Shown here piece by piece: positions 34,002 to 56,577 of a stretch of DNA of 64,000 nt. Origin of the DNA: a virus. Under the pieces are notes generated by a model. It was not told where the DNA came from. It did no database searches and was given only the letters and a program-made list of their open reading frames with translations. The position numbers were made by a program, and so were the translations under genes. The stretch is from the IMG/VR virus record IMGVR_UViG_3300022562_001644, positions 1 through 64,000 of that record; one strand, written 5' to 3'. Every line of letters starts with the position of its first letter. The stretch's first letter is position 1.

Positions 34002-34514
34002 ATGCCATCACGCTTATTTGACGCTCGAGTAAAGCTAATGAGCCAGGAGGAGGCTCGAGCGTCCCGCGAGGAAGCGAAGAAGAGAGCCCAGGAGGCGGAT
34101 GACGCCATCAAGGAGCTTGAGGAGACGGACGCCGCCAGCGTCAAGCTTAGAGAGACCCTGGCCGCGGCACAGGCTGTGGCGCCGATCGTCTACAAGGAGT
34201 ACCGCCGGCCTGGCTCGAAGTGGATGATCGAGCACTCCCAGGTAGGCCAAGACTACATCTTCCAGGTCCACACCCTGAAGCCGCCGAAAATCGAGGTCCA
34301 GGGAGTACTTGGGCTGATGATCAGCGCAATGGACGTGATCTTCCCAAGATCGTTGGATATTCGCTATGTTCCGCCGAGCCCGCGGTACAAGCTTCAATTT
34401 TACACAATCAGGGTAGAGAAGGTGGTGGGACTGCCTGGATGGTCAACGGCCATCGAGCGGGCACTGGCCTCCCTGTCAGTCATGGACGCCTGGCCTCGCC
34501 AGGAGCGCGGCTAG
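34002..34514 (+). CDS. hypothetical protein
   Basis: 170 aa; last gene of + arm. Confidence 0.75.
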   Translation: MPSRLFDARVKLMSQEEARASREEAKKRAQEADDAIKELEETDAASVKLRETLAAAQAVAPIVYKEYRRPGSKWMIEHSQVGQDYIFQVHTLKPPKIEVQGVLGLMISAMDVIFPRSLDIRYVPPSPRYKLQFYTIRVEKVVGLPGWSTAIERALASLSVMDAWPRQERG

Positions 34515-34807
34515 CCCCGTCCACGTCGCGACATGCGACCGATGGTCTTGAGCCCCAGGGCGGCCAGGAGACCGCCGAGAGCGCCCTTCTTGAGAGCTCC
34601 CACGGCAGTCTCCTGGGGTCCGTCGTATGGGTTGGGGGAGAAGCCGGCCTTGACGCTGTCGATGGCATGGCCCCCGAGTCCTGCCAAAGCGCCGCCGACC
34701 CCGAGTCGTTCATACAGGCGGTCCGGCCCAATCCGGATTTTCGCCTGCTTAGCGAAGCCCCCCGGCCTGAGCCGGAGGAGTTCGTCGGTGAACGACTGTA
34801 GGTTCAT
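34511..34807 (-). CDS. small glycine-zipper protein with FxDEL leader
   Basis: MNLQSFTDELLRL...FAKQA; GVGGALAGLGG and GALGGLLAALG. Confidence 0.75.
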   Translation of the reverse strand: MNLQSFTDELLRLRPGGFAKQAKIRIGPDRLYERLGVGGALAGLGGHAIDSVKAGFSPNPYDGPQETAVGALKKGALGGLLAALGLKTIGRMSRRGRG

Positions 34808-34813
34808 TGAGGT

Positions 34814-35584
34814 CTACTGGTTGGCGAACAGCGGCTGGCCAGCGCCGGTGAGCTGCATACGGATCGGGCGAACCTGATCGAACTGAAGACTCACGCCCTC
34901 CATGAGGAGGACAGAGCCAGAGCTGATGGACAGCTGGTGGCCCTGGATGTAGCACTCCTCGAGATAGACGGCACCGAGAGTCATGTCGAGCTGGTTGCGG
35001 AAGTAGATGCAGATACCAGTGGGCTGATTGAAGATATCCGACGCCAGGTTCATCCAGAGATCGTCATAGCCTGGATTGAACCGAACCCTGTGGAGCTCTT
35101 GCTGAAGCTGAGGAAGATTCAGCAGAGTCTTGTTGGGGTTGGGAATATCGACGCCGCCGACATTGACCGTGTCATCGCTTTCGTTCAGGAAGTTGAACTT
35201 GTCGGAAGCGGTCTGTTTGTAGTGGGCGTACAACACCTTCAGAAGGGATGGACCGTGGTAGAGGACTCGACCCAGGGTGATCGAACCAATGGTTCGGCCG
35301 GGGATGAAGTACGAGCGGCTGGAGCCAATCTCGAAGATTCGCTGAAGCTGCTTCGACTGGCTCAGGCCTACGTTCTCTAGAACTCCGATGGGGAATACCT
35401 GGTCCCCTTCGTCGTCGGTCAGGGCGTCATCGCCATTGCCGATGTCACTAAGCCGAGGAGGCCCGGCGGCGATGAGCGTTGTCTCTGCCGAGACAAATTC
35501 ACCGCCGAGGAGCTCCTCTTGGACGTGGTGGTTGTGGAAGTCCCAGTTGTTGAAGGACGTGGTTGCTGCTGGACGAAGAGGCAT
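34814..35584 (-). CDS. putative tail tube protein
   Basis: Downstream of sheath; QRIFEIGS, YLEECYI, EGVSLQF tube-like pattern. Confidence 0.7.
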   Translation of the reverse strand: MPLRPAATTSFNNWDFHNHHVQEELLGGEFVSAETTLIAAGPPRLSDIGNGDDALTDDEGDQVFPIGVLENVGLSQSKQLQRIFEIGSSRSYFIPGRTIGSITLGRVLYHGPSLLKVLYAHYKQTASDKFNFLNESDDTVNVGGVDIPNPNKTLLNLPQLQQELHRVRFNPGYDDLWMNLASDIFNQPTGICIYFRNQLDMTLGAVYLEECYIQGHQLSISSGSVLLMEGVSLQFDQVRPIRMQLTGAGQPLFANQ

Positions 35585-35603
35585 TGTTTCTCCTTACCTG
35601 GGA

Positions 35604-38460: not shown

Positions 38461-39147
38461 CTAGTGTGTGCCACTCCCGCTTGTCCGTACAACAATGTCT
38501 TGCAGCTTCTTGGAGTTATTCGGCCTCACGCTGTATCTCCGCTGCACCATGGCCTGAATGGCGATGGGAACAACAGACATTTCTGGGCGTGAGTCGCTTT
38601 TTACGAGGGCTTCTTCCCCCATGTTCGTGGCCTCGACTTTGAAAAAGCCTAGATGATTCGGGACCATGATACCGCGTCTTGCGATTTTCCGCAGGACGTC
38701 TCGTAGCACCTGGAATCCCTCAAAAAGGTAGCCAGCAATGTCCTCGGCCTCGACGCCCTGGCGAGAGAAGCAAGAGAGAACTACAGACCCTCGAATGAGG
38801 TCGGTGTGAGTCCTGGTGTCGGTTCGCATGTCGATGGACTGGAGCTGTCGAAAACCGCTTGTACGCATCCACGCGAGGGGACCCCGATTGGCCACGATGG
38901 CCGGCTTGGAGCCAACCTGGTCGAGGTTGAATGCGTACTTATCCACAATCATTATCTGGGTTTTCTCCTGGTCTGGATCCCAGCAGATTCCCATCGGGTT
39001 GTTCTCGAGGAACATGAGCTGAGCAATTTCAAGGGCGTATGACTTGATGACCTGGTGCGCGCGCACGTACCGCCGCTGATCGTCATGGACGCTGCGGGCG
39101 TTGTCCTGAGAGACCTCAGGGGGAAGTACTGGTTGGTCGTCGCTCAT
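38461..39147 (-). CDS. putative tail completion/terminator protein
   Basis: Position upstream of sheath; PAIV.NRG, S....EAEDIA pattern. Confidence 0.55.
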   Translation of the reverse strand: MSDDQPVLPPEVSQDNARSVHDDQRRYVRAHQVIKSYALEIAQLMFLENNPMGICWDPDQEKTQIMIVDKYAFNLDQVGSKPAIVANRGPLAWMRTSGFRQLQSIDMRTDTRTHTDLIRGSVVLSCFSRQGVEAEDIAGYLFEGFQVLRDVLRKIARRGIMVPNHLGFFKVEATNMGEEALVKSDSRPEMSVVPIAIQAMVQRRYSVRPNNSKKLQDIVVRTSGSGTH

Positions 39148-39665
39148 GTAGTCGGGTTCTCATCTTCGACTTCCTTCAAAGCCTCTTCGAAGGCGTCGCC
39201 CAGTCTATTCCTAACCGTGTTGGTTACGGTGTTTTTCATGGATTCGACGGAAGCCTTTTCTGACTGCTCACGGAAGATGTTCTCGAGCTCGATGCGACGG
39301 AATACGAGGTCCGATCGGCCATCTGACCGAGACCTGATTTCGGGGACTCCAGTGCTGGCCTCGAACAAAGACTCTACCGATACGGCATCGACCCCCTCAG
39401 ACTTGTCATGTTGAGCCATCTTCGAGGTGGCCCCAAGAATTTCGCTGGCATTGTCGGAGGTAATAACGAAGCGATTCCCTTCCGTCTTAACCTTGACTGC
39501 TGCACCGGGAGCTCTGTTGAGCCCTGGATCTGCCTGAGTGTTCAGATCTCTCTCAATGTTCTTGCCGATCTTGTCGTTCACCCTCTGCAAAACGTCTTCG
39601 TAATTATCGAAGGCCGTCGACTTTCTCAGGTCGAATCTGAACCAGTTGTTGAAGTTCGTGCTCAT
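39144..39665 (-). CDS. hypothetical neck-region protein
   Basis: 173 aa, coupled. Confidence 0.65.
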   Translation of the reverse strand: MSTNFNNWFRFDLRKSTAFDNYEDVLQRVNDKIGKNIERDLNTQADPGLNRAPGAAVKVKTEGNRFVITSDNASEILGATSKMAQHDKSEGVDAVSVESLFEASTGVPEIRSRSDGRSDLVFRRIELENIFREQSEKASVESMKNTVTNTVRNRLGDAFEEALKEVEDENPTT

Positions 39666-39910
39666 GAGAGGCTGGAAAAGTTCGTCAGGTGATTGGGGGT
39701 GGTCAGCGGAGTTGGTGCCACATTGTATTGAGCGGTGGCGGTTAACTGCGGCTGGCCAGACTTGAGTCCAGTCCTTGCGCCTGATCCCTGTGTTGCATCC
39801 ATCACGGACTGGATCGCAGACGCGAGGTCATATCCGGCCGGTCGCTCATGCTGAGGGTAAGCTGCTATCTTGATGAGCTCGTCGGCAAATCCGCGCATGA
39901 AGTGATTCAT
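39662..39910 (-). CDS. small protein with MNHFxxGFxDELxKxA leader
   Basis: MNHFMRGFADELIKIAA. Confidence 0.75.
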   Translation of the reverse strand: MNHFMRGFADELIKIAAYPQHERPAGYDLASAIQSVMDATQGSGARTGLKSGQPQLTATAQYNVAPTPLTTPNHLTNFSSLS

Positions 39911-40785: not shown

Positions 40786-40789
40786 CGAC

Positions 40790-41266
40790 CTACCAGAAGT
40801 AATTGAGGATGGAGTATTCGGAGATCACGCCGCTGGCGAGCGAGCTGTTGATGTTCGCCGAGATCTTGAAGTTTTGCTTCTTCCGCTCGTACTCAGCCAC
40901 GAACTGCGCAATCCAGCTCTGGTAAAGCTGGGTCTTGTCGAAGATACGGACGGAAACACCGCCGGAGCTATATGCGAGCTCATTCCTCGATTGCAGAATG
41001 CCCTTGCTTCGGAGCACCTGGATAGTGGCTCCATATATCAGCAGGTACAGAGAGGGAAAGGTAGCAAGACCACTGGCACCCAGGAGGGGCGCCGTGATGT
41101 TGTAGTCGTCGATGGCCAAGTCGATTGCTAGATCGAGGTCCGTGTCCGTCGACTCTTCCCGTCGAATCAGCCGGTTGAGCTCGGGGGTATCATTGAGAAA
41201 GAGGCGAAGGAGCTTCCTTACTCGTTCGCGCTCGTTCTCTTCTGCGGTACCGGTTGTGGTTGCCAC
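40790..41266 (-). CDS. putative head-tail adaptor
   Basis: LRLFL.D....N.L; YSSGGVSV; position after MCP. Confidence 0.6.
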   Translation of the reverse strand: MATTTGTAEENERERVRKLLRLFLNDTPELNRLIRREESTDTDLDLAIDLAIDDYNITAPLLGASGLATFPSLYLLIYGATIQVLRSKGILQSRNELAYSSGGVSVRIFDKTQLYQSWIAQFVAEYERKKQNFKISANINSSLASGVISEYSILNYFW

Positions 41267-41294
41267 TGACTAGCCTCCCGGCGGGTGCCGGCGA

Positions 41295-41756: not shown

Positions 41757-41807
41757 GGCTTACGTTACGCTCCGTCCGGTACTTGCGTCAAGTGACGTGA
41801 TGATCTC

Positions 41808-42701
41808 TTAGATCAGGGTCATCTTGGCGGCGGCACGGAGGTTTCCGTAGCCCATACCGACGTATTCCCAGGTCTGCCAGGAGACCATGTCAGCACGCTT
41901 CTCGATGTAGAACTTGGTGTCGTTCAGAATGTAGAAGTTGCCGAGGTATTTGGGGTCGGTGAAGATGTACAACGTTCCCGGGGGCACGATCGACGACTTG
42001 ATCGTGACGACCAGCTTGTGGCCGAGGATGGTGTTGTACTTGTAGCCGTTGACCAGGATCTCCGAGGCCAGCGGCGAGCCGATGACGGCCGACTCCTGGG
42101 TCATGAAGTCGTCCCAGTCCGCCTTGTGCATCAGGATGGTGCCAACGGCGAGCTCGTCGGTGTCGAGGGCCTTGAACAGTTTCACCAGGTTCTCGGAGGT
42201 GGCCGGGCCGGCAACCGCCGGGGCAACGTCCTTGCCGTTCGCGGCGATGACCGCGTCGGTGAACTCGATGAACTTTCCGTCCTCGATCTTCTGGATGTCC
42301 TTGACCGAGTTCTCCTCGATGACCTTGGTCACCGGGAAGTCGTAGGCCAGGAGCTCGGCTTCGTTCTTCTTGAACTTTTCCGATTCGATCTTGAAGAACG
42401 GAATCTCGTAGCGGTCGCCCTCGATGTACCGCTCGAACGCCTTGCCTCGGAAGTTCACCGCGGCCGCCGAGCTCTGGGGCTCGATGTCGACGATCTTCAC
42501 GAGGGTGTCGTGATTGACCGAACGCTGGCAGTCCGCCTTGGTGACGTATTCCGGGGGAAGAATCGAACGGGTGAACGAGACTTCGCGCAGGCGCTCGCGC
42601 ACGAAAGCGCCACCCGCCTGAGCGGCCTTCTCGAGACCGTCGTTGGTGTCCAACCTGGAAATGAACAGGTTGTTAAAGGTTGCGGCATCAATCTGATCCA
42701 T
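41808..42701 (-). CDS. major capsid protein (HK97-like fold, inferred)
   Basis: 297 aa, strong codon bias, AGGAG RBS, follows decoration/scaffold genes; VPPGTLYIFTDPKYLG. Confidence 0.8.
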   Translation of the reverse strand: MDQIDAATFNNLFISRLDTNDGLEKAAQAGGAFVRERLREVSFTRSILPPEYVTKADCQRSVNHDTLVKIVDIEPQSSAAAVNFRGKAFERYIEGDRYEIPFFKIESEKFKKNEAELLAYDFPVTKVIEENSVKDIQKIEDGKFIEFTDAVIAANGKDVAPAVAGPATSENLVKLFKALDTDELAVGTILMHKADWDDFMTQESAVIGSPLASEILVNGYKYNTILGHKLVVTIKSSIVPPGTLYIFTDPKYLGNFYILNDTKFYIEKRADMVSWQTWEYVGMGYGNLRAAAKMTLI

Positions 42702-42712
42702 GACTTTCTCCT

Positions 42713-43255: not shown

Positions 43256-43276
43256 AGTTGACCTCCTTCAGGATCG

Positions 43277-44059: not shown

Positions 44060-44062
44060 AAC

Positions 44063-44935: not shown

Positions 44936-44977
44936 CTACATTTCCCCTGTGGGATGAGGTTTACCCTCGGTAATCCC

Positions 44978-45433
44978 CTAGCCGGGGTAGTGCTTAGAGA
45001 TCAGGTGAGAGACGTAAGAAGGGTCTTCGGCCATGCGCTCGAGGATTGCAGCCTTGATGGAGGCCTTCTTCTCGGACTCTTCGCCGCCCTTGTCTTCCTC
45101 GCCTTCACTCTTGGCTTTAGTTTCCTCGTCCTTTTTCTCGGACTCGGAAGACTTCTCGCCTCGAGCTTTCGCCATGAGGGCGGCGACGGCTTTCTCTTTC
45201 TCGCCTTCGCTCGCCTCAGGCATTTCCTCTTCCATCGCCTCTTTGACCAGATCGGCCATGACGTGATGGGCGAGAACTCGACCAATGTGGTCGTAGTCCT
45301 GTGCTTGCTTGATCAGCTCAGCGTCGACATTCGAGAAGTCGGCTCCGTACTGAGCGGAAGCCTGCGCCTGGGCTTCTTTGACGTGGTCTTGCTCATTGAG
45401 CGCCACGAACACTTCTTTGAGTGAGTTCATCAT
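44978..45433 (-). CDS. acidic scaffold-like protein (paralog of 45481 and 48787 genes)
   Basis: MNSLKEVF...VKEA...QAQDYDHIGRVLAH...DLVKEA. Confidence 0.75.
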   Translation of the reverse strand: MMNSLKEVFVALNEQDHVKEAQAQASAQYGADFSNVDAELIKQAQDYDHIGRVLAHHVMADLVKEAMEEEMPEASEGEKEKAVAALMAKARGEKSSESEKKDEETKAKSEGEEDKGGEESEKKASIKAAILERMAEDPSYVSHLISKHYPG

Positions 45434-45480: not shown

Positions 45481-46197
45481 TTACGCCTGGAGATCTCGAA
45501 CCGTGGCGAACCCGGCCGGCGAACCGCTGCCCAGGCTGGTCGCCATGGACTCGGGGTCATCGCTGGTGCCCTGGCCGGCAGAGATGGTTTTGTTCGGCTT
45601 CAGCGAGTCTTTGTAGACTTGCTTCGGCGCCATGCCGGCGGTTTCGATCTTGCCGTCGTGGGCTTCGTTGCCAGCGAAGTTGGTTTCGACAGTCGGCAGA
45701 CCGCGATCACCAAGAGCCGGGGTCGACGCCGCAGACGGCGATTCGGTCATCTGGTTCTCGTTGACATCGGTGTCCATGTTGCCGGCGAGCTTCTGGAACT
45801 CATCGAAGAAGCCGCGAGCCATGATGCGGCCAGCAGCGTCATACTCCGATGCGATCTTGATGATGTCCGGAGTCTCCTCCTGAACGTACTCATCGGCCTC
45901 GGCGTCGGCCAGAGCCTCAGCCATCTTGGCAAAGTCGACGTCTTCTTCGCCGTAGTACTCTTCGCCGTAAGCTTGCGGGATGGCGGCGGCTTCTTTGACC
46001 ACGCCATCGTGCTGATTGATTGCCATGTAGATGTCTTGCAGTGAGTGCATTTGTTCCCCTCCAGAGGCGAGCTTGGTTGTGCCGACACCATCGTCGGCAA
46101 AGTTACTATCCGAGACGAATTCGCCTCCGGAATCAAAGGTTTCATCGGCGGCCGCAGCCGAACCGAACTTCTCCATCAACTCATTGAGAGTGGCCAT
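45481..46197 (-). CDS. acidic scaffold-like protein with GFFDEFQKLA motif; internal start at 46050
   Basis: AAAGGAA RBS before MATLNEL; GGAGGGG before MHSLQD. Confidence 0.75.
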   Translation of the reverse strand: MATLNELMEKFGSAAAADETFDSGGEFVSDSNFADDGVGTTKLASGGEQMHSLQDIYMAINQHDGVVKEAAAIPQAYGEEYYGEEDVDFAKMAEALADAEADEYVQEETPDIIKIASEYDAAGRIMARGFFDEFQKLAGNMDTDVNENQMTESPSAASTPALGDRGLPTVETNFAGNEAHDGKIETAGMAPKQVYKDSLKPNKTISAGQGTSDDPESMATSLGSGSPAGFATVRDLQA

Positions 46198-48133
46198 GAG
46201 TGGTTCCTTTCTTTTTCTGCGCGAGCCGCTTGATTGCTTTGAAAATGGCTGCGTCGATGGCTGCGCCAGCCAGTACAGCCGGCATGAGCTTTGAGGATGA
46301 TCCCACCGCATACAGCGCCATGTCTCCCATTGCGCTGCTGTGCTTCGTGAGGTTTTTCATCCCTTTCATCACCTGAGGTGCCAAGGCAAACGAGGCGAGT
46401 CCGGCAATATCTGGACGCATCGCTACGAAGCGATCGAATGCGTTCAGTTTTGCTCCCTGTCTCCATCGTTTTTGTTGGACGCCTGAGTAAATGTAAGCGA
46501 GGGGAATGAGGCCAATACGGGCCAATGGGTTCACCCCTGCAGTCTTGGAATGATGGTAGGCGGATGATTTCTTACCGTCAAGCCCGCGTCCTGTGCCGTT
46601 AGGACTTAATGGCATGGGCCTGTCTTGGGCGTCAAAGCCAACTGTAGCCCCGATTCCAGCACCGATTAGAATCGGAAGCAGCCACGGGTGCTTCGCCAGA
46701 GCCTTGATTGGGGCCGGTCCTTTGGTCACAAGCCCCGGGAAAGCCCTGCGGAAAACCAAGAATCCACCGGCCAGAGCCATGCTTGCTGGAAGCATTCCTC
46801 TCGTGCCCGACGAGGCCCGCAACCCCTCTTCGGTCATCGGATACCACTGGTTGCCCCTATCGTATCCGTCGAAGTCAGCTTTCTTCTCCATGTCTTGGAG
46901 GCGCCCGAGAAGAATTTCTGGGTAGCAGGACCGGTCAGCGACATAGGGTCGAAGCATCATCGCCACCTTTTCGCTGACGTCATCTTCCCCAAGCTGCGCA
47001 AATTCACTTGACCAGGATGGTGGCGTCGAGCTCGGTCTGGTCTCATCGAAAACCAGGCGATTCCGCTCGAGCTGGTCGGCGAGCTTCACATGCCCCTGCT
47101 TGATTAGGATGATTCGCTGGAATTCCTGCGGTCGAAGATCGATACCAAGAGCGGCGATAGTGCCAAGAATTTTCCGCAGAGGGAATCCGTTGGACAGTCG
47201 GTCGAGAAGTTCGGGCGGCAGCGGTCGCTCCATCCCTTTGACCGTGCCAGCGTCCTCCATAAAGGAGTTCAGCTTGGCCTTGTCCTCGGGGGTGGCCCCT
47301 TCAATGTTCGCCGCCGGCTGCGAAGGAACATCTTTCTCGATCTCGGCCCGCTTGTCCTGGGCGGCCCGCTTATCTTCTGCAGACAGCTTGGAGTAGAAGA
47401 CTTCCCCGAGTTCCGCTGACGGACGCACCTCATATGGGCGCTGAGTGTAAGCCACCTTCTTGAGGACATGGCTAGCCTTCTCGGCGCCAATGGTGACGAA
47501 GCTGATGTCGAAAAACTTCGGAAGCCTGTTGTAGGCAAAGACCCTGCGACCATCCTGCAAGATCTTGTTCATTTGGTAGCGCAGATGCGTGCAGTACTCA
47601 CCACGGTTCCGTGCGCGGTTTTTACAGATGGAGCATTCGTCCCACGGGACCTTGCAGCCCATCGAGACATCCCAGTAGTGGTTCTTTGCCAGGTCGCCAA
47701 GAATATCCTGACACTTCATGTCGTCGACGATGACGATGAGAAGAACCCGGTGCATGTTGGGGTCGTAGGCAGATAGCTTGACCTTCTCCCCGTATGCGCG
47801 CGCTGGGTCTTTGTTGACATGGTGCTTGTACGGGTAGGCGTAATGCATGAACGTCTCGTACCCGTAGTCGGCACCTTTGTGGCGGAGGGCTTCTTCGGGG
47901 AAGTAGTCTCCGTTGACGTTCGATCCGTAGTACTCGCCAGCCCCCATCGCATCGATGAGGAGCTGCGTCTTCCCGGGGATGGGCTTGGCCGACCGGATGT
48001 AGTTTTCCATCTCCGGTGGCAGCGGACGAGCCATCTTGATATGGCCGATGGTCTTGTTGACGTCGGCCTCGATGGGAAAGATGTGGGGTCCGGTAGCGTT
48101 GTCGTACCCCGCAAATGTGACAAGCTTGTACAT
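46181..48133 (-). CDS. prohead (capsid maturation) protease with long hydrophobic C-terminal extension
   Basis: N.NGDYFP, HH, VSMGCKVPWDECSIC...YCTH, NxxPKFFDISFVxxGA. Confidence 0.8.
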   Translation of the reverse strand: MYKLVTFAGYDNATGPHIFPIEADVNKTIGHIKMARPLPPEMENYIRSAKPIPGKTQLLIDAMGAGEYYGSNVNGDYFPEEALRHKGADYGYETFMHYAYPYKHHVNKDPARAYGEKVKLSAYDPNMHRVLLIVIVDDMKCQDILGDLAKNHYWDVSMGCKVPWDECSICKNRARNRGEYCTHLRYQMNKILQDGRRVFAYNRLPKFFDISFVTIGAEKASHVLKKVAYTQRPYEVRPSAELGEVFYSKLSAEDKRAAQDKRAEIEKDVPSQPAANIEGATPEDKAKLNSFMEDAGTVKGMERPLPPELLDRLSNGFPLRKILGTIAALGIDLRPQEFQRIILIKQGHVKLADQLERNRLVFDETRPSSTPPSWSSEFAQLGEDDVSEKVAMMLRPYVADRSCYPEILLGRLQDMEKKADFDGYDRGNQWYPMTEEGLRASSGTRGMLPASMALAGGFLVFRRAFPGLVTKGPAPIKALAKHPWLLPILIGAGIGATVGFDAQDRPMPLSPNGTGRGLDGKKSSAYHHSKTAGVNPLARIGLIPLAYIYSGVQQKRWRQGAKLNAFDRFVAMRPDIAGLASFALAPQVMKGMKNLTKHSSAMGDMALYAVGSSSKLMPAVLAGAAIDAAIFKAIKRLAQKKKGTTHGHSQ

Positions 48134-48774
48134 TAGGTTGGCGGCTTAAAGGTCGTATTGCTGAGCGCGTTGCGTATCCTTGGAGCCGGCACAGGAGCAC
48201 TGGCTACACTTCTCTGCGCTTGAGGCTGGAAGCTGGGGGTGAAGGACCCTTTTGGAGTGCCAGATGGGTTTAGCGCCCTCATAACGCCTCCGGCGAGCTG
48301 CTTTGCTTTGCCTACCTGCTTGCTGCCCTCAGCCTTCTGGTAGGCGTCCCAGCTCTTCTTCTTCTCAAGCCTGACCGCTCTTTCCTGATTCGTCTCCCAG
48401 GCCGGCCTATCGTACTTGGCCGCCGCGCCGCCCTTGCCCCTGTTACCAGAACCGCGCTGTTTGGACGCAGCCGGTGCTGATTCGGGCGATGAGTCGAACT
48501 TGATTCCAGGGGCTGGCCGATACTGCGCTGGTTGTTCGGTGGGCCTGTAGGCACCAGGGCTAACCCTCGAAACATTGACCGCCGGCTTCCCAAGAGGGCC
48601 AACCTCTGCCGGCTTTGGAGCCGGAGGGGATTTGGGCGCACCGCCCCCTGCCGGCTTTGAGGCCGGAGGGGGCTTGGGCTGGCTCGCCCGAAACGTACTT
48701 TGCTGCTCAAGTGGGGCCTGTGCGACCCCAAGCTTGAGCAGTTCAGTAGCGAATCCGTGCAGGAAGTGGTTCAC
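48133..48774 (-). CDS. Pro/Ala/Lys-rich disordered protein with MNHFxxGFxxELxK leader
   Basis: GTG-NHFLHGFATELLKLG. Confidence 0.7.
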   Translation of the reverse strand: MNHFLHGFATELLKLGVAQAPLEQQSTFRASQPKPPPASKPAGGGAPKSPPAPKPAEVGPLGKPAVNVSRVSPGAYRPTEQPAQYRPAPGIKFDSSPESAPAASKQRGSGNRGKGGAAAKYDRPAWETNQERAVRLEKKKSWDAYQKAEGSKQVGKAKQLAGGVMRALNPSGTPKGSFTPSFQPQAQRSVASAPVPAPRIRNALSNTTFKPPT

Positions 48775-48786
48775 GGTCAGTCAGTC

Positions 48787-49212
48787 TCAGCCCCGCTTCG
48801 GCACAGTGCCAGTTGCTCGAGAGTGAGTAACCGATTGCGAAGCTCCAAGGTCATTTTGGGGCTTCGGGGTAGAAGCCTTCCTGGATCCAGGCATACTAGA
48901 ATAGCCAGTGTTCGATGACTTGGTGTTCCCACCAGTCATTTTCGACATTGGCCAGTTTGCCTTAGTCTGCGATGGACCTCCAGACAACTTCTGGCCGGCT
49001 ACACTGTACTCGTTGTTCTTGTTAAGTTGAACGACGCCGCCCGTGAGATTCGGCGCAGCAAGCTTGCTGAGCTCATCGGCGAAACCGCGAGCCATGATGC
49101 GACCGGCGGCATCTTCTTCTTCGGCTTGCTTCCACATTTCAGCCGCTTGCTTTTCGAGCTCCTCGTCCAAGGGGACGATTTGCTGGTTGTACAGATCTGT
49201 AAGACTATCCAT
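48787..49212 (-). CDS. scaffold-paralog protein with GFADELSKLAA motif
   Basis: MDSLTDLY...EKQAAE..KQAEEEDAAGRIMARGFADELSKLAA. Confidence 0.75.
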   Translation of the reverse strand: MDSLTDLYNQQIVPLDEELEKQAAEMWKQAEEEDAAGRIMARGFADELSKLAAPNLTGGVVQLNKNNEYSVAGQKLSGGPSQTKANWPMSKMTGGNTKSSNTGYSSMPGSRKASTPKPQNDLGASQSVTHSRATGTVPKRG

Positions 49213-49238
49213 TTTCCTGCTCCTTGGTTATTGCGGGC

Positions 49239-50324: not shown

Positions 50325-51158
50325 TTACTTCCCCGATGCGGCCTGTCGGCGATGCTGCATGAGAGCTCGATGGTAAGCAAGAACACCTTCGCGGCGACCG
50401 ATCATGCGAGCCTGCTGGGCCACGTCCATGACATCTTTGCTGCCGCTCTCGTAGCCGGACTTTCTGCCTCTGCGCCGACCGACCTCAGCGCCAGCGGCTC
50501 CGGTTGCGCCAGCCACGAGAAGGCCTTTGCCAACACTCATCTTGCCTGGAGTTCGACCTTGGGCAGCTCGACGCCCGACCATTTGAGCAAGGCGGCCCAT
50601 CGATGGGCGAGCCATCTTGACCAGTTCGTCACCGAAGCCACTAATAAAATTCATCGCTACTTTCTCCCTTTGAGCTCGATCGAGAAGATCCTGCATGAAC
50701 TGCGCCTTGCGTGGAACCACTTCTTTGGTTTTTTCGTTGTGAATGAAGAACTCAGAGAAGGTGTCGCAGAAATCTTCCTCTGGGCTTGTTTTCGCATAAT
50801 CGTCGACAAATCCATCGCCCTTTGTTGACTCAGACCATTCTAAAACAAGGGAAGGGTCGTGTTTGAGGATGGCGTGAGCGAGCTCATGATAGACAGATCG
50901 GCGAAACTGTTCAGGATCAATCTTCCCGTCATGATACACGCCCTTGTCGAATACAACAATTGCGCCGAGCTTCGGCTCGTACTTTGAATGCCCCGGAGCC
51001 TCGGGGGGTGCATTTATGAGGACCGGCCGCCTGATGATGCTTTTGATATGGGGGTTTTGCTCGAGCCATGCCGACGGCAATGGTTTGAGCATCGCCAAGA
51101 GATGGCGAGCCTCCTGGGGCGACCATTTGCCCTCGAGCTCGACGCCGCGAATTCTCAT
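50325..51158 (-). CDS. zincin-like metallopeptidase fused to GFGDELVKMA glycine-zipper module
   Basis: VYHELAH, FVDDYAKTSPEEDF; EKVA-MNFISGFGDELVKMA. Confidence 0.75.
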   Translation of the reverse strand: MRIRGVELEGKWSPQEARHLLAMLKPLPSAWLEQNPHIKSIIRRPVLINAPPEAPGHSKYEPKLGAIVVFDKGVYHDGKIDPEQFRRSVYHELAHAILKHDPSLVLEWSESTKGDGFVDDYAKTSPEEDFCDTFSEFFIHNEKTKEVVPRKAQFMQDLLDRAQREKVAMNFISGFGDELVKMARPSMGRLAQMVGRRAAQGRTPGKMSVGKGLLVAGATGAAGAEVGRRRGRKSGYESGSKDVMDVAQQARMIGRREGVLAYHRALMQHRRQAASGK

Positions 51159-52765
51159 AGGACACGCGCGAGGTCCGAATACATCTTGGCAAGCACGCCG
51201 CCAGAAAGAGCAGCGCCAGCTGCGACCAGTCCAGCAAAGCGAAGAGGATGGCGCTCACGCCACTCGTCGTTGGTGCGGCTGTGAACCAGAGCAAGACCTT
51301 CGTCTGAGCCCGATTGAGTTCTGCGAACGTCCGCTGGGTCCATCCGCTTCCGAACCTCCTTGCCGCTTTCTGTACCGTAAAGATACAGACCGGCGAGGGT
51401 CGCAGGCACGGCAGAGATCATCGCGCCCTGGATAAATGTTGGATCGGTGCCAACTTCTTTGGCGGCCTGAGTGACCCGGTGCAGAACCTCGCGGTTGTTG
51501 ATCATGTCCTTGGACTGCTGGGCGATTTGCTTCCCAAGGAAGGCTGCGTCTCTCCCCGCCGATCTGATGCCTCGAGCGGCTTGCCCGATGAGATCTACTG
51601 GATTCATAGACCTAGCAAGGTCAGAGATGGCACCGCTGGTTTTCTCCAGGTCTTGCAGCTTCTGGGCAATCAAGTCTTCGGTCTCACCCTTCTCCTCCCT
51701 TGCCTCCCGCATGTACTTGCGAGCAAGCGAGAGCCCAACGATCGTAGGGATGGCACCGAGAACGTAGGTTCCCCACCCTGCACCAAGACGCTTGAGGGAT
51801 TTCAGCGCAGCCGCACGCCCTTCTGTCTCCTTGATGTGCTGAAGTGCGAGGACCGACGCCTTAGCCTCCGGGTAGAGAGTCGTTGCAGCAATCGTGGCCC
51901 CGGCAATCTCCGGGGCATGCCTTTGCATGAACTCAATGGCCTTGTCGTCGATGGTTCCCGGGAGAAGCTCTTTGATTCGATCACCGGCAATGAGCGCGGT
52001 GGGCAGAGCAATCTGCGCACTTCTGCGAAGCAATGGCTCCAGGTTTGCGCGAACCTTGCCAATCCGACCCTTGGTATAGTCGGCTGCGTGGCCGAGTTCG
52101 TGTAGCGCGAGCTCCTTGCTGACATCGGGGAGGTAGACGCGCTTTGTTGCGAGCTCGTATCGAGGACCAAGCATCCAGTTGAGTGGTCCCTGCTTTAGGT
52201 TTGTGGTGACACCCTTTTGAGCCAGGTTGTGCTTGTCGATGAATGAGTCGACGGTGTCCGTGATCTTGCTAACGGTACCCAGCACATTTATCCGCTTCTC
52301 CCCCAGAGGATGTTTCCAGGTGTGCTTGTACTCTGGGTTTTCTGCGAAGCGAGCGAAGGCTTCGTCGGTCTCCTTCAATACAGCCTCCGGAATGCCAGGT
52401 ATCCGAGCCTTCACATCAAAGAGACCAAGCAAGCGAGCTTTCGGATCCTTCGCACCGTAGTTGAGATCACCCAGCCGTTTCAGATCGGACGCCTGGGTCT
52501 GCCTGATGATTGTTGCGAACGGAGACTCCTTATCACCCTTCATCATTGCGTTGCGGAGGGCCACGTTGCCAAGGAAGCTGGCGACCCCGCCAACGGTGGA
52601 GCCGCCGACGGCGAGTATTCCTGCCATGGCTCGTTCCCCTGGATCAATACTTTGTGGATCCGGGTCGCGAGTGAAAGGCTTCTGCTCAATATCTTGAGCG
52701 GTATCTACCGCAGACTCTGTCGCGGTCTTCTCGTTCAAGAAGAATGTAAGGGGATCCCTGCTCAC
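51155..52765 (-). CDS. membrane-type HExxH zincin protein, multi-helix
   Basis: ALHELGHA, downstream EAKAS; several Gly/Ala hydrophobic helices; EKTA, EKTS sites. Confidence 0.75.
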   Translation of the reverse strand: MSRDPLTFFLNEKTATESAVDTAQDIEQKPFTRDPDPQSIDPGERAMAGILAVGGSTVGGVASFLGNVALRNAMMKGDKESPFATIIRQTQASDLKRLGDLNYGAKDPKARLLGLFDVKARIPGIPEAVLKETDEAFARFAENPEYKHTWKHPLGEKRINVLGTVSKITDTVDSFIDKHNLAQKGVTTNLKQGPLNWMLGPRYELATKRVYLPDVSKELALHELGHAADYTKGRIGKVRANLEPLLRRSAQIALPTALIAGDRIKELLPGTIDDKAIEFMQRHAPEIAGATIAATTLYPEAKASVLALQHIKETEGRAAALKSLKRLGAGWGTYVLGAIPTIVGLSLARKYMREAREEKGETEDLIAQKLQDLEKTSGAISDLARSMNPVDLIGQAARGIRSAGRDAAFLGKQIAQQSKDMINNREVLHRVTQAAKEVGTDPTFIQGAMISAVPATLAGLYLYGTESGKEVRKRMDPADVRRTQSGSDEGLALVHSRTNDEWRERHPLRFAGLVAAGAALSGGVLAKMYSDLARVL

Positions 52766-52774
52766 GGGGTTCCC

Positions 52775-53467
52775 CTACATCATGAGAGCTTTGGCCGCAA
52801 ATTCGCCAGCCTTGAGCGGAGCCATTTTCATGGGACCCCGATCTTCCCTCGCTTCATCAATCCTGCTTTGGGTCTCAGCGAGGTTCTTGATGTCGGCCGG
52901 CTGAATTTGGCCAAGCTGGGCGGTGGACGTCACCCAGGTTCCGGCCACGGTTGGATCGGCTGCAAGGGATGGGGCATACCTCGCGAGGACGCCGAAGTGA
53001 CGGCGGACGCGACCTGGATCGTCCTCCTCGAGCTCCTTCAGAACCGGATGCTCTTTGAACATCTGTTTGTAGGACATGTCGATCTCAGTCTTGAGCTTTT
53101 TGTCTCGGCTGTGACGCATAAGCCCGCCGATGCCAGCGGTGGCTCCAGCCGTCATGCCAGCCAGCGCCATCATCTTGCCAAGATTGGCTGCGACATCAGA
53201 CCAGCCAGCGGTCTCTGGCGGATCGCCCTTGATCGGAGGAGGTGGAGTCCTTCCACCAACCTTGAGCTTTTCAAAGAACCCACCAAGCCCACCGGAGGGC
53301 TCTTTTCTCGGAAGGCCTCGCATCGACTGAAACAGTCGGCTTGCGTATTTCCCCATCTCTTTTTTGATGAGGCGTTCACGTTGCTGGAGGACTTCGGCGG
53401 CAGCCTCCTTGGACATAAGGCCACGGCGTTGACACTCAGCGATCATTTGCAGCGATGACTTGGGCAT
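52775..53467 (-). CDS. head-cluster protein with glycine-rich hydrophobic helix
   Basis: ALAGMTAGATAGIGG; YAPSLAADP. Confidence 0.75.
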   Translation of the reverse strand: MPKSSLQMIAECQRRGLMSKEAAAEVLQQRERLIKKEMGKYASRLFQSMRGLPRKEPSGGLGGFFEKLKVGGRTPPPPIKGDPPETAGWSDVAANLGKMMALAGMTAGATAGIGGLMRHSRDKKLKTEIDMSYKQMFKEHPVLKELEEDDPGRVRRHFGVLARYAPSLAADPTVAGTWVTSTAQLGQIQPADIKNLAETQSRIDEAREDRGPMKMAPLKAGEFAAKALMM

Positions 53468-53469
53468 GA

Positions 53470-53805
53470 CTATCTCCGAAAGGCCTCTTCTTTGTATTTA
53501 CCATGGATGCGCTCGAGCTCGCGCTCAGTCGGCTTGTTCTTCATAAGCCGATTGAAATTCGTTGTCGCCGCTGGACTGACGTAGGCCTGCCTGGCTATCG
53601 GGTCGTATCCGGCATGAAGGTAGCTCTCAGCCTGCTCGCCGGATCTTCCACGCTTGTATCCCTGCCTTGCCGCAAGGGCTGTTCCGCCGACGGTCATCCC
53701 CAACCCGAGGGAATGAAGGGGGTGTTTTACAGCAAGGCCCAGAAGCTTTTTTGCAATAGCTGTCTTGACGAGCTCGTCACCAAACCCTGCAAGAAAATGG
53801 TTCAT
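53470..53805 (-). CDS. small protein with MNHFLAGFGDELVKTA leader and hydrophobic helix
   Basis: Motif at N-terminus; LGLGMTVGGTALAA. Confidence 0.75.
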   Translation of the reverse strand: MNHFLAGFGDELVKTAIAKKLLGLAVKHPLHSLGLGMTVGGTALAARQGYKRGRSGEQAESYLHAGYDPIARQAYVSPAATTNFNRLMKNKPTERELERIHGKYKEEAFRR

Positions 53806-54752
53806 GACAGCTCGCGGAGCCTCTGGTGGTAAACCTTCACCTCGTCATCGATACGCAGAAGGTTGTGGAGACCGTTCTTGATCTCGCCGGTCTTGCGCTG
53901 AACGGTATCCAACGAGATGAGGACGGGGTGAGCACCATTGATGACGGTGACGTTCCCCATGTCATCACTGATGTAGTCCTCCGGGGCCTTTGAGATCGCC
54001 ATCTTTTCCAGTCTAAGACGGGCGCTTCCGTGAACCTCCTTGAGGAGGCGTTCCTCGAAACGTGGAAGATATTCTTCGGCGACCTTGTGCAATCCAGACC
54101 CCGACGCAGCTTCGTAAATCTGCCTGAAGGTGGCACCACCGAGAACAGCTTGTTTCACAGTGGCATAGGCACTCTTCTCAAGCGATTCAAGCTCCATGCC
54201 TTTGTAAAGAACCTTGTCCTCGGCGTCCTGGCGTTCGGCGGCCTTTTTCTGGAGGATGATGATGATGCGCTTCTTTTCACCGTCCTCGTGAAGACCATTG
54301 TGCACGGCGGCGGGATCTGCGCCCATCATTGAGATGGTCGACGGGCCGGACAGGGGGATACCCTTCGGCGGACCAGCGTAGTCGGAGTCTGACATCGGAG
54401 GACAGCTGACCATCGGACTCTCTGGATCGTCGGAGTCAAGCGGCTTCTTTCCGACAACCTGAACAACGGTCTTGGCATCTGCCAGAGGGAATGCAATGGA
54501 CTCCTTCTGGGCGGTCTTTGACCAAAGAGCTCGATGAGTGGCAATGTTGGCCATCTCACAGATGCGCTCGATCTGGTTTGCGTTCAGATCGTTTTCTTCG
54601 GCGATCTTCTGAATCGTGGAGTTGAGCGGAACTCGTTCTTCGAGATATCGCTTGGCTGCAGTTTTGGCCAGAAGCTCGAGGCGATCGGCCGCAACCTTGA
54701 TATGTCGACTGCTCGGTTCGGAAAGCAGGTAGTTAAAGTGGCTCATGGACAT
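53802..54752 (-). CDS. first gene of head cluster, hypothetical (K-x-A rich)
   Basis: KVAA, KTAA, KIAE, KKAA, EKSA, KVAE, EKMA. Confidence 0.75.
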   Translation of the reverse strand: MSMSHFNYLLSEPSSRHIKVAADRLELLAKTAAKRYLEERVPLNSTIQKIAEENDLNANQIERICEMANIATHRALWSKTAQKESIAFPLADAKTVVQVVGKKPLDSDDPESPMVSCPPMSDSDYAGPPKGIPLSGPSTISMMGADPAAVHNGLHEDGEKKRIIIILQKKAAERQDAEDKVLYKGMELESLEKSAYATVKQAVLGGATFRQIYEAASGSGLHKVAEEYLPRFEERLLKEVHGSARLRLEKMAISKAPEDYISDDMGNVTVINGAHPVLISLDTVQRKTGEIKNGLHNLLRIDDEVKVYHQRLRELS

Positions 54753-54841
54753 CCAGGATCCTCGCTTCTTGGTTCTACTCGAAGGTATAAGGATAGAGTA
54801 TCAGGGTCAAGAAAGCGGAAATACAGTCAAAGGAGAAGCAA

Positions 54842-55513
54842 ATGAAATTTTGTCCTCATTGTGGAGGAGACCTCACATCATACATGGCAGCCGAGCAAGG
54901 CAACTCGGCTGTCCTGAGGCCCCCAAACCGTGAGAAGTACGACCAGGACAAGACCTGGCGTCAGCTCATCATGGATGCCGAGGCCCTCAAGGGGTCACCC
55001 CCCACCCCCATGGAGCTCGTCGGCAAAGCGGTCGACAGGGTTCGAGGGGCATTTTCGGGCACGAAGGAGGGTGACTCCGTTGGCACGATTGTTCATATCG
55101 CGACAGATCGCAATATCCAGCCCCAGGGCGGAGTCCTGCATCGAGCGACCCTCCTGGAGGGGAGAGTGCAAGACGACATCAGCAAGATGGAGCGGATGGG
55201 CTATGCCGTTCAGGACGGGAAGGTGGTGGTCGTCAACGATATCCCGGTTGGACGCGGTTACGTCGCAATCAATTACTGGGGAGGGGAAAAGCAGTATCGC
55301 CGCTGGCACATGTCGAAACCGGTCACCATAAACCCATCGAGGAACGGCAACCCCTTCTTCATGGACGAGAACATGATCGCATTCGGAGTATCGTGGAAAG
55401 ACCCAAGCAAGATGGAGGAGGCGCTTCTCGAGCTCTGCGAGATCCTGGCCGAGGGCGTTCATAAAGAGCGGACCATCGGCATACCGCTAGCCATGGAGCT
55501 TGTCTGGCAATAG
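54842..55513 (+). CDS. zinc-ribbon hypothetical protein (opposite strand to structural arm)
   Basis: MKFCPHCG; AAGGAG RBS; GTATAAG upstream. Confidence 0.75.
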   Translation: MKFCPHCGGDLTSYMAAEQGNSAVLRPPNREKYDQDKTWRQLIMDAEALKGSPPTPMELVGKAVDRVRGAFSGTKEGDSVGTIVHIATDRNIQPQGGVLHRATLLEGRVQDDISKMERMGYAVQDGKVVVVNDIPVGRGYVAINYWGGEKQYRRWHMSKPVTINPSRNGNPFFMDENMIAFGVSWKDPSKMEEALLELCEILAEGVHKERTIGIPLAMELVWQ

Positions 55514-55522
55514 TCGGTTCCT

Positions 55523-55530
55523 GGCATAAG
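55523..55530 (+). promoter_or_regulatory. GGCATAAG putative promoter motif
   Basis: Intergenic. Confidence 0.55.
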
Positions 55531-55552
55531 AAGGATGAAAGGAGAACTTCTT

Positions 55553-56002
55553 ATGTCCATAGGAACAATGAGAGAGCAATTCGCTGAAGCGTTTGACCGC
55601 CTAATGCATTGCCGGATCGTTCTCGAGAACCTCAAGAAAACAGCCGAAGATTGCCTGGAGCCAGCTCAGCCAATTCTCAAGCTCATCCATCTTGGTCGCC
55701 TGAAGGCTGACGGAGAGACCATGCGAGACATCGAAATCGGTGTGAAGCGGGTTGAATCCGACAAGCGGAATGCAATCAAGTGCATGGATGATGCCGAGAA
55801 GAAAGCTGATTCCTGCTCCAGCATCATCAGCCGGCTTGAGCTCTACTCGAGAACGCCAACCAGCAATGAAGAAATACGAAGGTGGGAGGACAAGTTTCAG
55901 GAAGAACTCTGGTTTCTGAATGCCTCGATAGAGGAAGTTCAAGCGCTACGTGCGCAAATCGAAGGGAGTGCAGCTTCCCTAGACAAATCGCTGCCCCTGT
56001 GA
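55553..56002 (+). CDS. coiled-coil hypothetical protein
   Basis: AAAGGAG RBS before ATG 55553. Confidence 0.7.
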   Translation: MSIGTMREQFAEAFDRLMHCRIVLENLKKTAEDCLEPAQPILKLIHLGRLKADGETMRDIEIGVKRVESDKRNAIKCMDDAEKKADSCSSIISRLELYSRTPTSNEEIRRWEDKFQEELWFLNASIEEVQALRAQIEGSAASLDKSLPL

Positions 56003-56006
56003 GCCA

Positions 56007-56045
56007 CAGCGGGGGGCCTCACGGTCCCCCGTTGCGGTTTTTTTT
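56007..56045 (+). terminator. intrinsic terminator
   Basis: CAGCGGGGGGCC/GGTCCCCCGTTG stem plus T8. Confidence 0.8.
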
Positions 56046-56067
56046 AGCTATCGGGTAGACTGTGGGC

Positions 56068-56577
56068 ATGGATAACGTCCTCGAGGGGTTTGCCGATGAG
56101 CTTGTAAAGCTCGCTGGGAAGCGGAGTTCGTCGGCGGGCGCGGAGGACGAAGACCTTCTCGCTCTCTACCAAAGGGTGAAGAGCAGAAGTGACAAGGGCC
56201 TAAATGATAGCACTCTGAAAAAAATCAGAGGTAAGGGACGTCAAGTCAGTCGCGATTACCTGGCGTCCACCCTGATTGGCTCTGTCGCAACCCCAGTTGC
56301 CCTCCTTGGAAGCAAGCGGATCTCGAGAGCCTTGCACAACCGAGAAGTCCTCAAGGCCATGCAGGGTGTGAAGGGGAGGCGTCGAAAAGCCCTGGCTGGA
56401 TACCTAGAGAGCGGCCCTATGCTTGGGAAGACGAAGGTTCCTGGGATGATGAAGGGCAAGAAGCCCATGATGACCCACGCCGAGCTAGCCGGTCACTCAA
56501 TTCGCGGTGGAGCGATGGGTTCCATCATCCAGATGCTGCGAGACCGGTTCTCTGGCTCAGCTGGCATCGGCGAGTAG
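56068..56577 (+). CDS. basic protein with GFADELVKLA leader, leaderless, outside head operon
   Basis: MDNVLEGFADELVKLAG; TAGACT 6 nt upstream. Confidence 0.75.
   Translation: MDNVLEGFADELVKLAGKRSSSAGAEDEDLLALYQRVKSRSDKGLNDSTLKKIRGKGRQVSRDYLASTLIGSVATPVALLGSKRISRALHNREVLKAMQGVKGRRRKALAGYLESGPMLGKTKVPGMMKGKKPMMTHAELAGHSIRGGAMGSIIQMLRDRFSGSAGIGE

Follow-up and report, generated by a model that had tools for sequence, protein, structure and literature searches.

A short tag copied from the scaffold heads several head-region proteins

Several otherwise unrelated head-region proteins of an uncultured, contractile-tailed phage carry a common short leader at their extreme N-terminus, and this leader corresponds to the last 16 residues, from a Met onward, of a unit within the scaffold-like proteins of the same phage. 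We place the probability that this tag is a capsid-targeting leader copying the phage's own scaffold at roughly 55%; docking, a receptor, a cut and packaging by the tag are what we infer. The window analyzed was a stretch of 64,000 nucleotides (positions 1 to 64,000 of IMG/VR record IMGVR_UViG_3300022562_001644), and motif scans covered the whole 91,958-bp (~92 kb) genome. A six-frame scan with the strict expression GFx[DTE]E[LF]xKx[AG] returned seven copies genome-wide, each of them in a real gene in the 39.8-56.1 kb interval. Every copy reported by the first-pass annotation, N-terminal and internal, was confirmed at its position. A profile HMM of the tag scored the strict copies at 24-37 bits and a weakened copy at a marginal 8.3 bits, while the best control score was 7.1 bits for a set of 10 codon-block shuffles and 4.9 bits for the reversed genome. 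The seven strict copies are seed members of this HMM and the informative part is the empty gap and the absence of further matches. Beyond the seven strict, one weakened and one decayed copy, neither the six-frame scan nor the HMM found another copy in the genome. The genome-wide profile scan proposed earlier as a check revealed no enrichment elsewhere; the copies are limited to the structural gene block, with all carriers at 34.5-56.6 kb. The 2063-aa RNA polymerase of the phage, putatively virion-packaged, was without the tag in the genome scan, suggesting that the tag is not the sole route into the head.

The window holds four strict N-terminal copies, all with Phe at residue 8, and one weak one. 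The tag MNHFMRGFADELIKIA (39863..39910, minus strand, 36.6 bits) opens an 82-aa protein (39662-39910) and matches the strict expression. Tag VNHFLHGFATELLKLG, with a GTG start (48727..48774, minus strand, 24.2 bits), opens a 213-aa Pro/Lys-rich basic protein (48133-48774), MNHFLAGFGDELVKTA (53758..53805, minus strand, 32.1 bits) a 111-aa basic Gly/Ala-helix protein (53470-53805) and MDNVLEGFADELVKLA (56068..56115, plus strand, 27.9 bits) a 169-aa basic protein (56068-56577). The last of these starts at ATG 56068 and not at GTG 56062, and ortholog starts are in the same register. The weakened tag, MNLQSFTDELLRL / MNLQSFTDELLRLR (34766..34807, minus strand, 8.3 bits), has its Phe at residue 6 and opens a 98-aa Gly-zipper protein (34511-34807). 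Its orthologs read MFLEAFTDELIRIE and MDRKAFADELLKTA, and because the latter is the reading in a relative we consider the copy a genuine member. The gene for this carrier sits past the tail tube gene, outside the head genes.

Internal copies were found in a zincin-like protein and in scaffold-like proteins. The internal tag KVA-MNFISGFGDELVKMA (50610..50663, minus strand, 26.0 bits) spans residues 166-183 of 50325-51158, a zincin-like protein of 277 aa, with K-x-A on either side. ATG 50654 within this gene is preceded by an SD-like AGGGAG and a nested start is possible. The protein matched Pfam Peptidase_Mx1 at E 0.005, under the curated cut-off. Scaffold-type units are KQA-EEEDAAGRIMARGFADELSKLA (49057..49131, minus strand, 32.9 bits) in a 141-aa scaffold-like protein (48787-49212) and KIA-SEYDAAGRIMARGFFDEFQKLA (45784..45858, minus strand), a strict copy, in a 238-aa scaffold-like protein (45481-46197). 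A decayed unit, KQA-QDYDHIGRVLAHHVMADLVKEA (45236..45310, minus strand), was recognized in the scaffold paralog 44978-45433 by paralogy and ortholog alignment and was undetected by the tag HMM. It had been described as a degenerate copy of the motif; the stretch is indeed the homologous part of a scaffold paralog, but the invariant Glu is gone.

The motif unit of the scaffold-like proteins

The three scaffold-like paralogs (45481-46197, 48787-49212 and 44978-45433; BLASTP E 3e-6 between the last and the first) had no Pfam or PHROG family match. They fit the profile of a phage scaffold, being helical or disordered, acidic-rich, encoded between the protease and capsid genes and conserved with both. 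On reading the sequences, the scaffolds look acidic-rich as against the mostly net-basic carriers. Their unit is a 22-residue amphipathic helical segment, K-x-A / E-E-x-D-A-A-G-R-I-M-A-R-[GA]-F-x-D-E-L-x-K-x-A. In the alignment of a 24-member scaffold family, the unit in 45481-46197 is the longest run of invariant residues, and K114, A116, K136 and A138 are invariant. Residues 110-139 of this protein were predicted as a single helix at low confidence (AF2, pLDDT 52), and the monomer model was used for this helix call alone. Complex predictions of the 82-aa carrier with the capsid protein, protease residues 1-250 or scaffold residues 95-238 scored 0.00 with no controls run, which is no evidence either way.

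The tag is a portable peptide module

In all-versus-all BLASTP, carriers resembled each other over ~15 residues only; longer similarity was seen for the scaffold-like paralogs and, weakly, for a 39662/53470 pair. This agrees with the initial impression that the remainders are mostly unrelated. With the tag masked, 121 tagged proteins from relatives fell into 41 clusters. The full-length homology that would have reduced the motif to simple paralogy was not found for most carriers by BLASTP or by tag-masked clustering, and simple paralogy is ruled out for these; it may hold for short low-complexity proteins. The carriers, mostly small and of low complexity, could be paralogs diverged past detection. 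At identical residues third-base identity was only 0.46, with synonymous codons varying freely, indicating selection for the peptide itself and not for the nucleic acid sequence. The differing synonymous sites also rule out recent gene conversion, or an element acting at the DNA or RNA level. Together these data support the motif as a discrete peptide unit, portable between proteins and selected at the protein level. The modular tag common to the scaffold paralogs that the first-pass annotation envisaged is borne out in its placement, internal in the scaffold-like proteins and strictly N-terminal in the unrelated small proteins. Among cargo tags, within-genome identity was 0.481 compared to 0.453 between genomes (p 0.03), with no signal when all tags were used; concerted evolution or homogenization of the tags, which a common receptor would lead one to expect, is only marginal.

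Carriers are almost all 57-323 aa, basic and Gly/Ala/Pro-rich, plus the one zincin-like fusion. The varied cargo suggested earlier stands as regards the unrelated remainders, but its range is narrower, consisting of small basic Gly/Ala/Pro-rich proteins and this single fusion. N-terminal carriers are small and for the most part net basic.

Conservation in related phages

Six related IMG/VR contigs have the tag at equivalent places in their gene order. In these relatives the capsid protein is 93-96% identical and the tagged proteins just 31-50%. The tag of 39662-39910 is retained in six orthologs with the remainder 40-53% identical, and orthologs of 48133-48774 are alignable over the first ~26 residues only. 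In 50 N-terminal carriers from relatives, a few residues at most separate the start codon from the tag. Gene neighborhoods of relatives were read from IMG/VR loci. A broader form of the motif, [GAS]-F-x-D-E-L-x-K-[IL]-[AGS], heads many small basic Gly/Ala/Pro-rich proteins in relatives and is internal to the scaffold in most of a large uncultured phage group. Of 41 relatives whose sequence extends at least 5 kb upstream of the capsid gene, 29 have a scaffold-type ORF with the motif; in the loci listed it lies a few kb upstream of that gene. The capsid protein is shared by more than 408 IMG/VR contigs, and the scaffold family of this phage has 163 proteins. Scaffolds throughout a very large uncultured group contain the motif, and the tag of this phage is its local version, not a peculiarity of one genome.

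The canonical motif is absent from a sister clade with a capsid protein ~58% identical. The GenBank relatives Salmonella phage Arash, Vibrio phage D69 and phage G have 22-32% capsid identity. No tag was found by the expression or the HMM in the head regions of Arash and D69 (capsid 32% identical), and neither has homologs of the carriers, so their virion annotations are not transferable to this phage. No scaffold relative was found in GTDB genomes, which yields no prophage and no clue to the host. One scaffold homolog is labelled as from a Thermoanaerobaculia MAG. A portal was sought in 53802-54752 and 59778-61397, neither of which had a match in PHROG, Pfam or PDB sequence searches.

The prohead protease and candidate cut sites

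The gene adjoining the scaffold genes encodes a 650-aa prohead protease (46181..48133, minus strand; PHROG 18299, E 2e-7) with a gp21-type N-domain (~1-216), a CxxC...CxH insert and a conserved 400-aa C-terminal extension. Its AF2 model matched T4 gp21 (5JBL_B) with Z 12.4 and an rmsd of 3.0 A over 147/164 residues, compared to Z 5.3 for the next match, and the top three Foldseek matches were all 5JBL. H104, H105 and S157 are invariant. The HMM found no copy of the tag in the protease itself. The major capsid protein (297 aa; 41808..42701, minus strand; PHROG 2522, E 2.6e-17) has a K25-x-A27 near its N-terminus; both residues are unchanged across 30 sequences with identities as low as 47%.

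K-x-A also recurs elsewhere in the head module. The pattern h-x-K-x-A occurred 30 times in head-module proteins versus 9.7 expected (z 7, threefold) and 36 times versus 25.4 expected in the remaining genome. K-x-[AGS] terminates 90% of tags, and 67 of the 71 internal tags have K-x-[AS] within 16 residues upstream (random windows, 27 +/- 3.7), mostly 5-6 residues ahead of the GR that opens the unit. The gp21-type proteases of T4 and phiKZ cut after Glu, as to our knowledge does every gp21-type protease with characterized sites. Glu11 is the sole 100% invariant residue of the tag. On these patterns there are two candidate cut sites, one behind K-x-A and the other behind the invariant Glu.

These patterns also fit a reading in which the tag does no addressing and is only a propeptide, with an enlarged signal for recognition and cleavage by the gp21-type protease; the carriers would arrive otherwise or simply be processed. 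The tag ends in the very h-x-K-x-A enriched in head proteins, and K-x-A is also invariant near the N-terminus of the capsid protein and reappears at the domain borders of the protease. The one fully invariant tag residue is a Glu, as is the P1 of the gp21-type protease of SPN3US (PMC10052503). However, the upstream h-h-x-[GA]-F-x-D-E part is missing from the other conserved K-x-A sites, known three-residue gp21-type sites require far less than a 16-residue helix in a fixed N-terminal register, and cutting off a leader without an earlier function is hard to justify. The T4 capsid-targeting sequence (CTS), moreover, unites both roles. We regard a pure propeptide as a minority possibility.

Proposed mechanism and remaining alternatives

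Under the capsid-targeting reading, the tag helix would admit the carriers to the scaffolding core during prohead assembly, whether through pairing with the copy in the scaffold or via a receptor used by the scaffold. The gp21-type protease would then remove the leader, and the basic mature parts would remain DNA-associated as internal or ejected proteins. N-terminal tags front several proteins that are small, basic and quick to diverge, and whose genes lie among those of the head and neck. Points against this reading are the narrow cargo set, the untagged RNA polymerase, the sister clade in which the canonical motif is absent, the marginal homogenization of the tags and the carrier gene past the tail tube gene. 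The fullest version, to which we give tentative credence, is true scaffold mimicry, with a 16-residue 'entry ticket' taken from the K-x-A-bracketed unit and placed on new genes, together with a gp21-type protease switched from Glu to Lys-x-Ala.

A somewhat less probable alternative than the propeptide is that the carriers are minor scaffold or core-building proteins derived from the scaffold gene, the motif being a retained co-assembly helix; their fate, like that of the scaffold, would be degradation and expulsion. The T4 core genes 67 and 68 lie between the packaging genes and the protease, the position of the carriers here; paralogy is demonstrable among the three scaffold-like proteins, and the motif is ancestral in the group's scaffolds with the N-terminal copies patchy. 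Against this, N-terminal carriers have no detectable similarity to the scaffolds once the tag is masked, they are mostly net basic with Gly-zipper helices where the scaffolds look acidic-rich, and the tag also occurs behind a zincin-like domain. A helix role unrelated to the capsid is improbable; it might lie in directing small membrane proteins to the membrane or in recruiting a host chaperone, as is reported for the N-terminus of T4 gp23 and GroEL. Hydrophobic helices rich in Gly/Ala do occur in many carriers and in the protease tail, and propeptide functions besides targeting are discussed in PMC10052503. Against such a role, soluble acidic scaffold proteins in most of the group contain the motif unit internally, several carriers lack a hydrophobic segment and every copy is inside the structural block.

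Comparison with known systems

Internal proteins of T4 are small and basic. An N-terminal CTS on the internal proteins IPII and IPIII loads proteins, including GFP, into the core, where the prohead protease is gp21 (Mullaney & Black 1996, reviewed in PMC9958956). The tag resembles the CTS in being a short N-terminal leader on several small head-region proteins (head-internal in T4), with genes near those for protease and scaffold, a protease of equal fold (Z 12.4 to 5JBL), basic carriers and a leader that plausibly bears the protease site. It differs in its unrelated sequence and in its length, 16 residues compared to ~10 in T4. The leader here is a copy of a unit within the scaffold proteins, for which we know of no report in T4, and the conserved boundary is K-x-A instead of [LI]-x-E.

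In lambda C/Nu3 and herpesvirus UL26/UL26.5, nested genes give protease and scaffold a common capsid-binding tail, which in UL26/UL26.5 is cut off by assemblin at an Ala-Ser site. These systems are alike in having a short peptide common to the scaffold and other prohead-internal proteins that is freed, in our phage putatively, by a protease of assemblin/gp21 fold, where P1 may be Ala, and the possible nested start at ATG 50654 in 50325-51158 is a further likeness. Theirs is a C-terminal peptide in one nested frame, whereas here the copies are N-terminal or internal in separate genes and the protease is without one. Encapsulin cargo peptides are usually C-terminal and are not known to be removed. 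As with the tag, whose capsid addressing we infer, they are short portable peptides on diverse proteins, which they send inside an HK97-fold shell (PMC8346489). The consensus differs, and the present phage is a DNA-packaging tailed phage; its terminase large subunit (PHROG 675, E 7.5e-50), tail sheath and prohead protease exclude an encapsulin cargo-loading system. In the giant phages many head proteins lose N-terminal propeptides, some of 20-24 residues, to the proteases phiKZ gp175 and SPN3US gp245 (PMC10052503). The likeness is an N-terminal leader on head-region proteins beside a gp21-type protease, with removal presumed here. Unlike the tag, no common leader sequence is given in PMC10052503 and the cuts follow Glu (A-x-E type).

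No description of the tag motif was found in the literature searched. Protein sorting into the prohead scaffolding core of tailed phages is still called mysterious, even in T4 (PMC9958956). Here a putative address peptide is readable from the sequence, is visibly scaffold-derived and is conserved over a large uncultured group. Cargo entry by scaffold imitation is a concrete hypothesis, testable with a few recombinant proteins. If scaffold mimicry is true, it would give a sequence-readable rule for capsid-riding proteins across hundreds of uncultured phages, and if the cut follows K-x-A, it would be a new specificity in the gp21 protease family. The tag may offer prediction of capsid-internal and possibly host-injected proteins in metagenomic phages, and it is a candidate portable label for packing proteins into phage capsids.

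Distribution of the tag in the phage genome

The window, the opening 64 kb of one 91,958-bp contig, comes from a tailed phage and has genes for a terminase large subunit (PHROG 675, E 7.5e-50), a tail sheath, a major capsid protein and a prohead protease. The lineage is known from metagenomes only; no close relative of the genome was found among 50,697 GenBank phages, and the scaffold was without any relative in GTDB (185,579 species genomes). No portal protein was recognised when 53802-54752 (-) and 59778-61397 (-) were examined. The former (316 aa) may be a small portal or core protein: every lineage has kept it, and in the distant relatives L012 and L019 its gene comes after that for the terminase.

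The 16-residue tag in its strict form, GFx[DTE]E[LF]xKx[AG], occurred seven times in a six-frame scan of the whole genome, confined to 39.8-56.1 kb and always within long ORFs. N-terminal copies, with Phe at residue 8, were found in 39662-39910, 48133-48774 (GTG start), 53470-53805 and 56068-56577, and internal copies in the zincin-like protein 50325-51158 and the scaffold-like proteins 48787-49212 and 45481-46197. These copies scored 24-37 bits with a profile HMM and shuffled or reversed genomes at most 7.1 bits. A weakened copy at 34766-34807 (8.3 bits) is genuine, as its orthologs in related contigs have MFLEAFTDELIRIE and MDRKAFADELLKTA. The scaffold paralog 44978-45433 has lost the Glu from its homologous stretch, which accounts for the degenerate copy there.

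The tag is conserved as a peptide

All-against-all BLASTP of the tag-bearing proteins (carriers) showed similarity over only ~15 residues, apart from the scaffold-like trio (37 residues shared by 45481-46197 and 48787-49212; 25% identity across 140 residues for 44978-45433 and 45481-46197) and a weak 39662-39910/53470-53805 pair. The claim of one motif on mostly unrelated proteins was therefore borne out, and simple paralogy does not account for most carriers, though short low-complexity ones may be diverged paralogs. The third base was shared in only 46% of codons at identical residues, and all four Gly codons and several each for Phe and Leu were used. This synonymous variation indicates that selection acts on the peptide, and it rules out both a signal in the nucleic acid and gene conversion of recent date.

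Six IMG/VR contigs were fully syntenic with the window. Their capsid proteins were 93-96% identical to that of the window (41808-42701) and their carriers only 31-50%, with the 48133-48774 ortholog alignable over its first 26 residues only; each contig retained the tag in most of the corresponding genes (5-8 copies apiece). The capsid protein had more than 408 IMG/VR relatives, on contigs of up to 204 kb. An iterated tag HMM, run over 80 of these loci (1.16 Mb), detected 114 tags and nothing above threshold in their reversed sequence. Counts per locus were restricted to loci whose sequence extends 5 kb or more upstream of the capsid gene. Of these 41, 35 carried a tag, 29 a scaffold-type tag, and 6, all of this phage's clade, at least five tags. 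Rescanning the loci together with the window genome and other loci gave 184 hits in 121 unique tagged proteins, 119 of which yielded the general logo [GAS]7-F8(86%)-x-D10(76%)-E11(100%)-L12(74%)-x-K14(93%)-[IL]15-[AGS]16.

The canonical tag was absent from a sister clade with ~58% identical capsid proteins (L034:6654-9414, L036:6825-9419), in which the scaffold carries only a diverged version, EEALGARAFDHY...EKIA, and a 293-aa protein carries, ~11 residues from its N-terminus, the look-alike EAFLRGFVRRLKGQAG with R-R in place of D-E, a charge swap. In a distant lineage (L012:9866-10408, L014:9878-10372) one scaffold protein of 164-180 aa has two tags, N-terminal MGNTLQEIIAELEKVA and an internal copy, and a neighbour homologous to the untagged 52775-53467 of the window is tagged near its N-terminus, evidence that the module has been gained and lost.

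The tag copies a scaffold unit

The scaffold-like 45481-46197 had 163 unnamed homologs in a collection of 5.8 billion proteins, and the longest invariant run of the family (24-member alignment) lay in the motif stretch K114-x-A116 ... E-Y-D-A-A-G-R-I-M-A-R-G-F-x-D-E-F-x-K136-L-A138. The N-terminal tag corresponds to the final 16 residues of a 22-residue unit internal to every scaffold-like protein. Residues 110-139 of 45481-46197, containing this unit, were predicted as one helix in a low-confidence model, and the seven strict tags had hydrophobic moments of 0.43-0.57, in agreement with the amphipathic helix proposed earlier.

The varied cargo proposed for the tag held up in part. With the tag masked, the 121 proteins fell into 41 clusters, so the tag is modular; the cargo class is narrow. 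The 50 N-terminal carriers were 57-323 aa, mostly net basic (up to +39) and Gly/Ala/Pro-rich, often with one or two Gly-zipper hydrophobic helices. The sole enzyme-like carrier was the zincin-like protein 50325-51158 (HELAH; Pfam Peptidase_Mx1 E 0.005, under the cut-off). The Met opening its internal tag, at 50654 (-), lies 9-10 nt downstream of an SD-like AGGGAG, and every ortholog keeps it, within E-K-[VIT]-A-M. A nested start may yield the tagged C-terminal part as a separate product, or cuts on both sides may free it.

The 536-aa protein 51155-52765 (-), without a family match, carries the zincin motif HELGH along with several hydrophobic helices rich in Gly and Ala; it had homologs (43-46% identical) in just the two close relatives that were compared, and shares a ~5-kb insert between conserved head genes with three tagged genes. 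The N-terminus of 49239-50324 (-), MPFKSKAQQRWMFA, matches PHROG 1375 (E 1.5e-7, function not known), and the remainder is rich in Gly, Glu and Lys, with a Gly-zipper helix at the C-terminus.

Proposed role of the tag and its processing

The carriers are located between the packaging genes and the protease, and beside neck genes. In T4, core genes 67 and 68 occupy the position between packaging genes and protease, and this match fits a role like that of the T4 capsid targeting sequence (CTS). We favour, at roughly 55%, scaffold mimicry as the way in which carriers would gain access to the scaffolding core: the tag would pair with its counterpart in the scaffold or occupy a receptor used by the scaffold, and the leader would be lost during digestion of the core by the gp21-type protease. 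T4 internal proteins IPII and IPIII are loaded in this manner by the CTS (PMC9958956). The system of this phage would work like that of T4 and shares a T4-type protease with it, but the window leader is of unrelated sequence, longer, and demonstrably copied from a unit of the scaffold. Counted against a CTS-like role were the lack of the canonical tag in the sister clade, the marginal homogenisation of tags within genomes, and the large RNA polymerase of the phage, in which the six-frame scan found no tag.

The 650-aa protease (46181-48133, -) has a confident N-domain in its AF2 model that matched T4 gp21 (5JBL) with Z 12.4 and rmsd 3.0 A over 147 residues; the next match had Z 5.3. His104, His105 and Ser157 were invariant among 23 homologs, as was a Cys/His cluster inside the catalytic domain (C167-x2-C170 ... 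C181-x-H183), probably a zinc knuckle. A 400-aa C-terminal extension, aligning over most of its length in 23/23 homologs, contains hydrophobic helices rich in Gly and Ala as well as a helical domain (~residues 282-420) that was modelled with confidence. Both the cluster and the extension are absent from T4 gp21.

K-x-[AS] occurred within 16 residues upstream of 67 of 71 internal tags (27 +/- 3.7 in random windows), mostly 5-6 residues before the GR opening the scaffold unit, so that internal tags are bracketed by K-x-A on both sides. In head-module proteins (39000-56600) h-x-K-x-A was enriched threefold (30 observed, 9.7 expected, z 7.0), and the remainder of the genome had 36 against 25.4 expected. 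Across 30 capsid protein sequences, the most divergent at 47% identity, K25 and A27 never changed but flanking residues did, and K-x-A recurs at protease domain borders. These sequence patterns point to K-x-A as a functional site. Of the alternatives to scaffold mimicry, we regard a pure protease signal as unlikely. That the carriers are minor scaffold proteins and not delivered cargo appears somewhat less likely again. A tag function unrelated to the capsid is very improbable.

The proposed entry into the core by scaffold mimicry recalls lambda C/Nu3 and herpesvirus UL26/UL26.5, where protease and scaffold have a capsid-binding tail in common; there the sharing stems from nested genes. An encapsulin system was rejected, as this is a tailed phage with terminase, tail sheath and prohead protease. 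We found no published description of the motif.

T4 gp21 and phiKZ gp175 cleave after Glu. The gp21-type protease of SPN3US likewise cuts after Glu (PMC10052503). Glu11 is the only fully invariant tag residue. The T4 CTS ends in F-I-A-E, which the F-x-D-E of the tag resembles. Given the Glu specificity of these three proteases and the invariance of Glu11, the tag could be cut after Glu11 or after K-x-A16. The head-module enrichment of h-x-K-x-A and the invariant K25/A27 of the capsid protein would agree with cleavage governed by a Lys-x-Ala code. Such a code, if true, would set this enzyme apart as unusual among gp21-type proteases.
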